A stretch of 64,000 nt of DNA from Bdellovibrionales bacterium. GTDB taxonomy: Bacteria; Bdellovibrionota; Bdellovibrionia; Bdellovibrionales; UBA1609. The stretch covers positions 1,024,001 through 1,088,000 of the forward strand of contig OZ241456.1 in NCBI GenBank assembly GCA_965200875.1, in the 5' to 3' direction. The notes beneath the pieces are model-generated. The model had not been told where the DNA came from. It did not search any database and saw only the letters and a list, made by a program, of their open reading frames with translations. Position 1 is the stretch's first letter. The number at the start of each line of letters is the position of its first letter. Positions 44,314 to 46,319 of this stretch are shown piece after piece. The position numbers and the translations under genes were made by a program.

Positions 44314-45810
44314 TTAACAATATGGCATCACTTGTGTTTTGTCATATTTAAAAGCTAATCTCACAGAACCAGTTATTAGTTTTGGCAATAGAATATTACG
44401 CAGTTTTTCAAGGTTTAAAATTTGAGACTGATTGTGATATATTTTATTAAATAATGGCTCTACTAAAAACTGAAAACGAGATATAACACCTTTATCTGGC
44501 ATCGAAACCATAATTTTTGAAAAATTACTAGTGTTTAAATTCATTGTGGTTGTGCCACCACTAGCCATTGCTTCCAATGAAGATTGAAATGATTTCATAA
44601 AAAGATAGATGAAATATCTATACTTATCCTCTTTTGGAATAATAGAGTTTATTTGTTGATTGGTCTGGCTTTCAAAAGCATTCATTGAAATTAAACCAAC
44701 TGTTGCAATACAGCTTACACAAATTGATTTTTTTGGTATGGTTTTATTACTTTGAGAATTTTGTCCTGATTTTGAAAGTCCATCCTCTGTTTTAAATACA
44801 AAAGTATTTCCGTGCATATCAGGAATTTTTATAAATGGTATTTTCTTACCAAAATATTTATGTATCTTTTTTGACGGTGTTTTTCCACAGATAATATATC
44901 CAAAATATGATAAAGGTTTTTGTGGCCAGTGGGGGTTGGCATCTTGGATAAACCATTTGTGGAAGAGGGTTTGAGCCATTTCTTCCAAAGTTTTGTTTTG
45001 TTCATGCAACAGTTCAATTTTGTCATCCAAACTAGACAACACTTCAGCAATCGCCTTTTGTTCAGAGAGGGGAGGGAGTAGAATTTCTAAATTCATAAGC
45101 TCATCTATCTGCACTCTTTGTCTTCCTGAAGAACCAGTCATGGATTTTATGGCTAAATCTCTAAAATATGAAGAGATAGTAAAATAAAACAGATAATACT
45201 TATCAACTAAATTGTATTTACCTCTCATAACAATAAATTCTGTTGAACCAAAACCTAATTCATCTTTCTCTAAAAAATTAACAAAAGCTGTTTTTCCATT
45301 TTCCAAACAAGGTGTTATTCTGGCCACTAAAGTATCACCATTTCTGAACTTTGATCCCCCTTTGTATAATTCATTTGTATAACCAGACACTTTTCGTTTA
45401 AAAGATATTAAATTATCCATCAATACTTTTTTTGCCAATGATTTTTTTGGAAGTTTTTCCAGTGGATTAAAAATGACAACTTCCCCCAGTTTCACTTTGT
45501 GCCAGCCTTTTCTGTAAATGATTATTCCATACTTATCAATATGCTCTTTTAAGTTTTGATTATCAATTTTTGGATAAGAGACAAAATCAAAAAAAAATGG
45601 CAAATCTGTTTCTTCTTCAAAATAAAATTTCAGATCAGAAATCAGTTTATGGTTGGCTTTTTTTCCTTTAATGGCCATATCCACATCTGAAGCTTCTTTA
45701 AAAGTATTTATAGCCCTAGACCCAAATAATAAAGCTGACTCAATCTCTTCATATCGAGAGAGAATTGTGGTTACTTCATTAAGTTGTGATTCTGAAAGAC
45801 CATATTTCAC
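44314..45810 (-). CDS. hsdS: MNT nucleotidyltransferase::HsdS fusion (type I R-M specificity subunit)
   Basis: Residues ~1-100 carry GS-x10-DVD; then W..VKLGEV, ARITPCLENGK, PPLSEQKAIA..L..LDDKIE, second TRD and LRNILLPKLITG; no stop at the junction. Confidence 0.88.
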   Translation of the reverse strand: MKYGLSESQLNEVTTILSRYEEIESALLFGSRAINTFKEASDVDMAIKGKKANHKLISDLKFYFEEETDLPFFFDFVSYPKIDNQNLKEHIDKYGIIIYRKGWHKVKLGEVVIFNPLEKLPKKSLAKKVLMDNLISFKRKVSGYTNELYKGGSKFRNGDTLVARITPCLENGKTAFVNFLEKDELGFGSTEFIVMRGKYNLVDKYYLFYFTISSYFRDLAIKSMTGSSGRQRVQIDELMNLEILLPPLSEQKAIAEVLSSLDDKIELLHEQNKTLEEMAQTLFHKWFIQDANPHWPQKPLSYFGYIICGKTPSKKIHKYFGKKIPFIKIPDMHGNTFVFKTEDGLSKSGQNSQSNKTIPKKSICVSCIATVGLISMNAFESQTNQQINSIIPKEDKYRYFIYLFMKSFQSSLEAMASGGTTTMNLNTSNFSKIMVSMPDKGVISRFQFLVEPLFNKIYHNQSQILNLEKLRNILLPKLITGSVRLAFKYDKTQVMPYC

Positions 45811-45899
45811 GATTTTTTACCCTCATGTTACATTGACAAATCTGAATTTTTATCGGTCCTATACGTAATATCAAATTTAAAATAGCAAGTTTCAAGTTT

Positions 45900-46319
45900 T
45901 TATTCTGAAGTATTTATTTCTTTCTTTAAATTATGATATAGGTCTCTCACAAGAGAGAAGTAAATATCATTTATAAAACCAATAACTTCTTTTAAAATTT
46001 CAGGATGATAAACATGGCTGGTTTGATTGCGTTTTTTAAAAGCTTCTATCCAAGCTTCAGCATCACTTATTATTTCTGATTGAAAAGCCTGTCGAATAAC
46101 TTTTCTTGGTGTTTCCAAATCACTGAATCCTGCATTTTCCAAATAATCTTTTAATGTGTTTCGTGTAAGTTCCATTAATATTTCATAACTTTGAATCAAT
46201 GATAGTTGATAAGCTTCATTTTCTGGATTTTCTTCATACTCTTTTTGTCTTCGGCAAAAAAGATTAAAAGATTTTTCAAAATTTTCAAACCTTTGTTTCC
46301 ATCTTTTTTCGTTATTCAT
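45900..46319 (-). CDS. HEPN toxin (HI0074-like nucleotidyltransferase substrate-binding family)
   Basis: RWKQRFENF, IQ.YE...EL...LKDYL, PRKVIRQAF, RNQTSHVY (R-x4-H-x-Y). Confidence 0.88.
   Translation of the reverse strand: MNNEKRWKQRFENFEKSFNLFCRRQKEYEENPENEAYQLSLIQSYEILMELTRNTLKDYLENAGFSDLETPRKVIRQAFQSEIISDAEAWIEAFKKRNQTSHVYHPEILKEVIGFINDIYFSLVRDLYHNLKKEINTSE

Follow-up and report, generated by a model that had tools for sequence, protein, structure and literature searches.

A predicted HepT/MntA-type antitoxin domain at the N-terminus of the type I restriction subunit HsdS: a recurrent and apparently undescribed assembly of known parts

HEPN genes within restriction–modification (R-M) operons are well known, and the specificity subunit of type I systems, HsdS, needs HsdM for its stability. 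Type I systems by themselves are not known to bring about post-segregational killing. The toxin–antitoxin (TA) pairs of class I HepT/MntA are defined in PMC7641770 by the motifs RX4HXY (HEPN toxin) and GSX10DXD (MNT antitoxin); the toxin is neutralised by AMPylation of a tyrosine, and that article describes the trigger of these type VII systems as an open question. In the HEPN–MNT pair of Legionella, as presented in PMC11586414, the short MNT binds weakly and the modification is incomplete; the model of the authors includes the degradation of MNT and de-AMPylation.

The window analysed here is a stretch of 64,000 nucleotides from a Bdellovibrionales bacterium. The island of interest is on the minus strand, in the order hsdM, three cargo ORFs, a HEPN gene, a gap of 89 nt, an ORF of 498 aa, a cargo ORF of 272 aa and an OLD-like ATPase–TOPRIM gene. 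The preliminary description, made from the sequence alone, had placed a HEPN gene with the motif RNQTSHVY directly upstream of one ORF, whose first ~100 residues would be an MNT domain running without a stop into a complete HsdS with two target recognition domains (TRD). Both statements are borne out. The HEPN gene (45900..46319, minus strand) codes for a predicted RNase toxin of 139 aa of the HI0074/PF08780 family (class I HepT), which scores 103 bits against PF08780 and 72 bits against TIGR01987 (HI0074, cut-off 55.8); R97, H102 and Y104 are the key residues of its motif. Q43 and E46 align to Q44 and E47, the metal site of the Legionella HEPN, and the conserved W53 is replaced by R (94% of 109 homologs carry Trp there). 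None of the PADLOC models covers this HEPN. The genome contains only two PF08780 genes, this one and that of a second locus described below.

The 498-aa ORF (44314-45810, minus strand, GTG start) is a single frame in which Pfam recognises Polbeta at residues 11-101 and two stretches of Methylase_S. The MNT domain (residues 1-99, 45514..45810, minus strand) is assigned from PF18765 and PF01909, from alignments and from a match to PDB 8XEO; its motif is G30-S31-x10-D42-x-D44, and D75 is conserved too in the alignments. It scores 27 bits against PF01909, above the cut-off of 21, and 27 against the MntA equivalog NF047752, under its cut-off of 60. Three residues, R-K-G (45505..45513, minus strand), with neither a stop nor a Met, form the junction, defined from the translation, from linker parsing and from the contigs of other runs. 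The HsdS part, from W103 to the end (44314..45504, minus strand), consists of TRD1, the central conserved helix, TRD2 and the C-terminal helix: PF01420 matches twice, PADLOC calls it Specificity_I, and the two TRDs and their conserved helical spacers are present in an AlphaFold model (pLDDT 91, pTM 0.82), with which Foldseek retrieves HsdS structures (1YF2, 7VS4 and others) as well as the MNT 8XEO. The HsdS model of PADLOC, PDLC03138, aligns from residue 11 of the fusion, so that the PADLOC library already contains this N-terminal domain, though without a label that would reveal it. A complex prediction with residues 1-488 and two HEPN copies scored 0.11, the mark being 0.32, and counts neither for nor against; a promoter scan gave 35 matches, with 29 +/- 6 expected, and no RNA holder was listed.

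An RX4HXY HEPN of PF01934 or PF08780 that adjoins a PF01909 MNT with GSX10DXD is what distinguishes, by sequence, the class I HepT/MntA pairs. This HEPN is a stand-alone PF08780 protein of 139 aa, not the fusion of an ABC-ATPase with HEPN that characterises the anticodon nucleases PrrC/RloC. The window pair is thus, as judged from its motifs and profiles, a class I HepT/MntA (type VII) system whose antitoxin rides on HsdS.

The junction, which the preliminary description had placed at ~45510, is spanned by contigs of runs X1, X2 and X3, which show no difference and no gap across it (~45505-45513); X1 and X2 are one sample, possibly the source of the window, X3 belongs to another study, and all are assembled contigs, not raw reads. 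This agreement between two studies and the many fused homologues rule out an assembly or frameshift artefact. A search with residues 1-170 of the fusion found both Pfam domains in 114 of the best 120 matches (out of 1811, many of which are plain HsdS), and a query from a second lineage (L013) found them in 119 of the best 120 (out of 124). Among these best 120 of each search there are 232 clusters of fused proteins, one being common to both, so that the fusion, for which the preliminary description knew of no characterised counterpart, is not a singleton. The MNTs of the two lineages are 24% identical, and GSX10DXD is kept in 115/115 proteins of the main lineage and 117/120 of the second one. 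Short relatives of the main-clade MNT number only 29, about five of which end in the start of an HsdS or are cut fusions.

At least nine phyla are represented among the genome loci. In a tree of 211 MNT domains, most fusions fall into a single clade, interspersed with stand-alone members, and the others into separate lineages. A selection of 69 rows includes 22 fused ones, whose distribution takes 10 state changes to explain. A test of the monophyly of these 22 rejects it (AU p 1.8e-5); it used 101 columns, LG+G4 without a mixture model, and rows picked after seeing the 211-domain tree. A single ancient origin is rejected on this basis, and the phylogeny indicates that the fusion arose several times independently. 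It occurs with three type I families: that of the window's HsdM, that of the second locus of the same genome (L231), and the EcoEI_R_C type (L168, L169). As to mobile elements, IMG/VR gave 15 pattern matches, none of which was confirmed, and the fusion is covered by 0 of the 107 matching records of PLSDB (72,556 plasmids); a phage- or plasmid-borne module was discarded on these grounds.

We found no description of an MNT fused to HsdS in the open-access texts searched, and term look-ups of PMC12839542, PMC13000451, PMC3710099, PMC3632139, PMC3874165 and PMC2993543 did not meet it; the supplementary tables of Payne and Yao could list it. The architecture is real, widespread, convergent and apparently undescribed, and it is made of known parts.

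To describe the context of the fusions we used 80 genome loci, which were ranked by likeness to a fused query and are biased towards fusions, and 55 metagenome loci obtained with an MNT-only query. Sixty were fused; removing two duplicates (L084, L122) leaves 58, of which 53 are assessable, five having no upstream flank. The co-occurrence with an upstream HI0074-like HEPN gene in type I operons, which had been suggested at the outset, is found: RX4HXY is intact in 46 of these 53 loci and broken in 6, and one has no HEPN, although some single frameshifts could be assembly errors. An hsdM gene lies upstream in 41 of 42 fused loci (in L004 it is only a 48-aa remnant). Of 32 fused loci, 28 contain an hsdR gene downstream, which is complete in 20, truncated at the end of the locus in 4 and split in 4. 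In three of the other four it lies a little past that end (one with a stop), so that it is near in 31/32 and absent in 1/32; it is found in 32 of 35 unfused control loci. These counts rule out that a decoy without hsdR, of the kind of Ronin, is the general arrangement. L037, L104 and L121 are examples of intact loci, in the order hsdM, HEPN, MNT–hsdS fusion, hsdR.

Among 76 parsed proteins, 23 pairs, which are not independent, have MNTs that are at least 85% identical; TRD1 is wholly different in 17 of them and TRD2 in 17. The values of dN/dS, from few close pairs, are 0.21 for MNT (11 pairs), 0.12 for HEPN (3), 0.09 for HsdM (2) and 0.07 for the central helix of HsdS (7). TRD swapping and these values indicate that HsdS is still evolving as a specificity subunit with MNT attached, and that both TA genes are under purifying selection. 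The linker is of 3 aa in 73 of 129 parsed proteins (21 were not parsed) and ranges from 3 to 51 aa; it keeps a Met in only 16, so that most fusions have no evident route to a separate HsdS. In the second lineage it is of 7-8 aa in 54 of 61 parsed proteins (of 120).

The same slot between hsdM and hsdS also hosts unfused HEPN–MNT pairs (L005, L029, L047, L070, L011, L057). Two HEPN–MNT cassettes in tandem are seen there in L029:6420-9140, where neither MNT is fused, and in L011 and L057:6781-9500, where only the second MNT is. Pairs of the same clade also stand beside unrelated genes, outside R-M loci, in L091, L097, L103 and L116, and the N-terminal MNT survives nonsense or frameshift mutations of hsdS in L089, L108, L123, P0122 and P0125.

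A sample of 401 genomes of the window's phylum, searched regardless of fusion, gave 93 MNT matches, including eight long frames: four are fused to HsdS and four to another domain (SLT by Pfam in three). The latter type is seen in four genomes (L171, L172, L173, L174), where a HEPN gene precedes an MNT with a C-terminal SLT transglycosylase-like domain, apparently in two MNT lineages. A type I gene was present in the fetched flank of four MNT matches, and all four are fused to HsdS; the remaining ones have no hsdM or hsdS within the fetched flanks of 1.5-2.5 kb, some of which were ended by contig ends. In 83 of 91 cases MNT is the 3' gene of the HEPN–MNT pair. As a control, 57 HsdS without MNT have a foreign N-terminal domain in 0/57, and cargo between hsdM and hsdS in 37/49.

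The copy in the window is not in good shape. Its hsdM (48372..50132, minus strand; 586 aa, PF02384 and PF12161, NPPF motif) sits 2 kb upstream of the HEPN–fusion pair, behind the three cargo ORFs (46669..48267, minus strand), which code for a beta-flower protein of 169 aa (PF21784) and for proteins of 187 and 113 aa. A low-complexity insert lies in frame near the C-terminus of this HsdM (48372-48900). In a related contig (X1/X2), position 46373 is joined to 48377 without the three cargo ORFs, and hsdM almost adjoins HEPN; the three ORFs are thus a later insertion. Of hsdR there remain only the last ~50 codons (39280..39429, minus strand), 68-74% identical to the HsdR C-termini of related loci, and overlapped by a fragment of an IS200-like transposase (PF01797, 39337..39594, plus strand). 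The set of hsdM, hsdS and hsdR is incomplete in the window, and the search of the genome (94.5% complete, 1.87 Mb) yielded no full cognate copy of hsdR. The preliminary description had noted neither the hsdM behind its cargo ORFs nor the loss of hsdR. A gene of another hsdR subfamily, at G000:C1:1513520-1515602, is broken into two frames of 158 and 548 aa.

In an alignment with 29 related HsdM, 250 columns are conserved, and the window's HsdM departs from 16 of them (the others from 0-7); its HEPN deviates at 7 of 38 conserved columns (0-4 in the others), while MNT (1/33) and the HsdS central helix (1/29) are normal. These deviations, to which a long branch could contribute, are together with the loss of hsdR most simply read as decay of this copy: the loss looks like a recent event, and HsdM and HEPN look decayed, not repurposed. 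A second X1 contig has the identical junction, other TRDs and ~4.9 kb between hsdS and the end of hsdR, which is room for an intact hsdR.

Downstream of the fusion, the 272-aa ORF (43467..44285, minus strand) matches PF13643 with E 0.009, under the cut-off, and has AbiJ_NTD5/DUF4145 atlas neighbours and an R-x6-H motif; these weak signals indicate that it is probably a second HEPN protein, AbiJ/DUF4145-like. Its homologs come after hsdS in L004, L022 and L029. Then come the OLD-like ABC ATPase–TOPRIM gene (41014..42993, minus strand; Pfam, PADLOC) and a gene of the Rpn/YhgA family (39862..40797, minus strand; PF04754). The flanks hold two pentapeptide-like repeat ORFs and one long ankyrin-like repeat ORF (38025-38714, 52094-52864 and 53041-55164, recognised by eye in the translations), a BrnA-like antitoxin ORF (38733-39060, weak Pfam matches) preceded by a short stretch in which a toxin partner may survive in broken form, and, in this bacterial genome, a topoisomerase VI subunit B-like gene (PF09239, 55668-57446).

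The same genome has a second, unrelated fusion locus, L231 (G000:C1:810499-820033), which comprises an HTH-fused hsdM, a cargo gene of 551 aa, HEPN, a fusion of 626 aa, a probable adenine methylase and an ATPase. At C1:814475-816893, a HEPN with RNNTAHDY precedes an MNT fused to half an HsdS, by a linker of ~190 aa; the HsdM of this locus is of another family, and identity to the window's proteins is 28% for MNT and also 28% for HEPN. No hsdR was seen in the 25 kb examined. The 626-aa fusion has repeat insertions, and VIPA-x-AGIQ-type stretches are repeated, also in frame, in two HsdS (G000:C1:814084-816893 and 1522390-1523649).

We propose that the supply of antitoxin is coupled to the synthesis and stability of HsdS, which would make the locus a backup or addiction module; we see this as about equally likely to be right or wrong. 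A HEPN–MNT pair, in this order, occupies the place that cargo takes after hsdM, and its antitoxin has become a permanent N-terminal domain of an apparently working HsdS; the analysis shows this architecture, the conservation of the catalytic motifs, the intact R-M surroundings, the ongoing swapping of TRDs and the repeated origin. By analogy with the closest characterised relatives, MNT would AMPylate Tyr104 of HEPN and so silence the RNase, and the fusion would assemble, like other HsdS, as M2S1 and R2M2S1. The antitoxin being made, folded and degraded as a part of HsdS, any cut in the supply or stability of the latter, be it that the locus is lost or rearranged, that HsdM disappears, or that host shut-off or proteolysis intervenes, would also be a cut in antitoxin, and new or under-modified HEPN would become active. 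The coupling would operate through dose and lifetime, not through sensing; the locus would become addictive, and the outcome would be dormancy or an abortive backup. In favour of this reading are the many fused clusters in two divergent lineages, the kept GSX10DXD motif, the intact HEPN, hsdM and hsdR genes around most fusions, the TRD swapping, the low dN/dS values, the linkers that mostly lack a Met, the rejection of a single origin, the four fused MNTs out of four beside type I genes in the phylum sample, and the 0/57 among other HsdS. What PMC11586414 reports of the Legionella relative (incomplete AMPylation, a labile and weakly binding MNT, the model of degradation and de-AMPylation) leaves room for control by dose; it makes a bifunctional protein, whose antitoxin dose tracks HsdS, the best-supported reading, which we hold with moderate confidence.

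Several observations count against supply coupling. The same-clade pairs that stand alone outside R-M loci imply that neutralisation can do without HsdS; unfused pairs are also seen in the same slot, fusions split, the toxin is broken or lost in 7/53, linkers reach 51 and ~190 aa, and the identities of MNT, HEPN and HsdM correlate weakly (rho 0.27-0.35, 27 loci). It may also be that AMPylation, being covalent, outlasts the loss of antitoxin. Addiction in particular would pay most in plasmids and phages, and the fusion is absent from the PLSDB and IMG/VR records searched. The preliminary description had inferred both an addiction module and a guard that is released by phage inhibition of HsdS; the former, with supply coupling, is the more likely half.

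In the guard or decoy, a phage or plasmid anti-restriction protein that binds HsdMS, of the Ocr, ArdA or Stp type, would block or remove the attached MNT and switch HEPN on, as in PrrC or Ronin. We regard this as unlikely, even if it would account for the fact that independent fusions were made repeatedly to HsdS specifically, in three type I families, and has precedents in PrrC (PMC3710099, PMC12707154) and Ronin (bioRxiv 2023.04.06.535777) and a parallel, known by its name alone, in the PDB chain called Cmr1-MntA. In the majority of main-clade fusions the 3-aa junction sets MNT directly against TRD1, and the pTM of the model is compatible with a preferred orientation; on the contrary, the spread of linkers from 3 to 51 aa, and to ~190 aa in L231, argues against a single fixed geometry. 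AMPylation is catalytic and covalent, from what PMC7641770 and PMC11586414 report, and need not reverse when HsdS is blocked. Both loci of this genome are without hsdR, like Ronin, but such loci are exceptional (1/32), the HsdM and HEPN of the window look decayed rather than repurposed, and no restriction enzyme remains there to be guarded. The weak correlations, the pairs outside R-M, the split fusions, the lost toxins and the MNTs fused to SLT domains also weigh against it. In its most general form, MntA would have been repeatedly grafted onto core subunits of defence machines (HsdS, and Cmr1 in CRISPR), a phage inhibitor that attacks the machine would disable the antitoxin too and free the HEPN RNase, and MNT–HsdS would be a widespread, convergent, built-in guard of type I restriction; we offer this as a tentative and rather improbable generalisation.

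Alternatively, the TA pair could be a tolerated passenger, an ordinary piece of defence-island cargo that hitch-hikes with the R-M locus without functional coupling, which we find doubtful. With MNT as the 3' gene, next to hsdS, the two would become fused by small deletions; the small domain would leave HsdS undisturbed and might be stabilised by it. The position of MNT in 83 of the 91 phylum-sample cases, the related MNTs fused to an SLT-containing domain in four genomes, the unfused pairs in the same slot, the frequent fission and toxin loss, and the embedded cargo that type I operons commonly carry (as described in bioRxiv 2024.01.29.577857) are in line with such a route. However, other cargo of the same slot is not fused (0/57), each of two lineages has more than 100 fused clusters, the main-clade MNT has only 29 short relatives and several of these are broken fusions, the internal start is lost in most fusions, and the toxin is intact in 46/53.

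Whichever reading holds, hundreds of proteins labelled only "restriction endonuclease subunit S", if labelled at all, bear an antitoxin enzyme of a TA system, its motifs intact. Should supply coupling be true, type I R-M loci gain a toxin-based backup or addiction function; if the pair is a passenger, the N-terminus of HsdS still accepts an enzyme of 100 aa while the TRDs swap. With such coupling, the comparison of fused and split forms would inform on how TA modules are wired to first-line defences, and on the triggers of type VII systems.

MNT domains joined to another protein, and toxins kept in R-M loci, have counterparts among known systems. A fused, N-terminal MNT is also found in FhepTA, where PMC13000451 reports stabilisation by fusion; the partner there is its own toxin, not an R-M subunit. 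In the PDB chains named Cmr1-MntA (9Z7Q, 9Z7V, 9Z7X), an MntA domain is joined to a subunit of a defence complex; judging from the PDB name (no paper on these chains was found in the literature searched), this subunit is one of CRISPR type III, with MNT at the C-terminus (residues 354-430 of 438). Ronin, as described in bioRxiv 2023.04.06.535777, consists of hsdM, hsdS and ronA without hsdR, and its toxin is restrained by HsdMS; both loci of this genome resemble it in lacking hsdR, but RonA is a membrane toxin of 61 aa and most MNT–HsdS loci keep hsdR. With PrrC, encoded in the EcoprrI type IC locus, the window shares a HEPN RNase in a type I operon, which is proposed to act as a second line of defence (PMC3710099, PMC12707154); according to these sources PrrC is an ABC-ATPase–HEPN protein held by the R-M complex itself, whereas the window has a separate enzyme antitoxin that is fused to HsdS. 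The closest solved pair is that of Legionella (PDB 8XDJ, 8XEH, 8XEO; PMC11586414), whose HEPN and MNT are the closest solved relatives of the two TA parts (E 1e-17 and 1e-16), and which belongs with HI0073 of Haemophilus (1NO5) to the same branch, PF08780/PF01909. The window pair shares with it RX4HXY, GSX10DXD, the metal-site residues Q43/E46 (Q44/E47) and a short MNT (TM 0.88 over the target, 8XEO). Unlike the Legionella pair and HI0073, the window has its MNT, as read from sequence, at the N-terminus of HsdS, and its pair within a type I operon.
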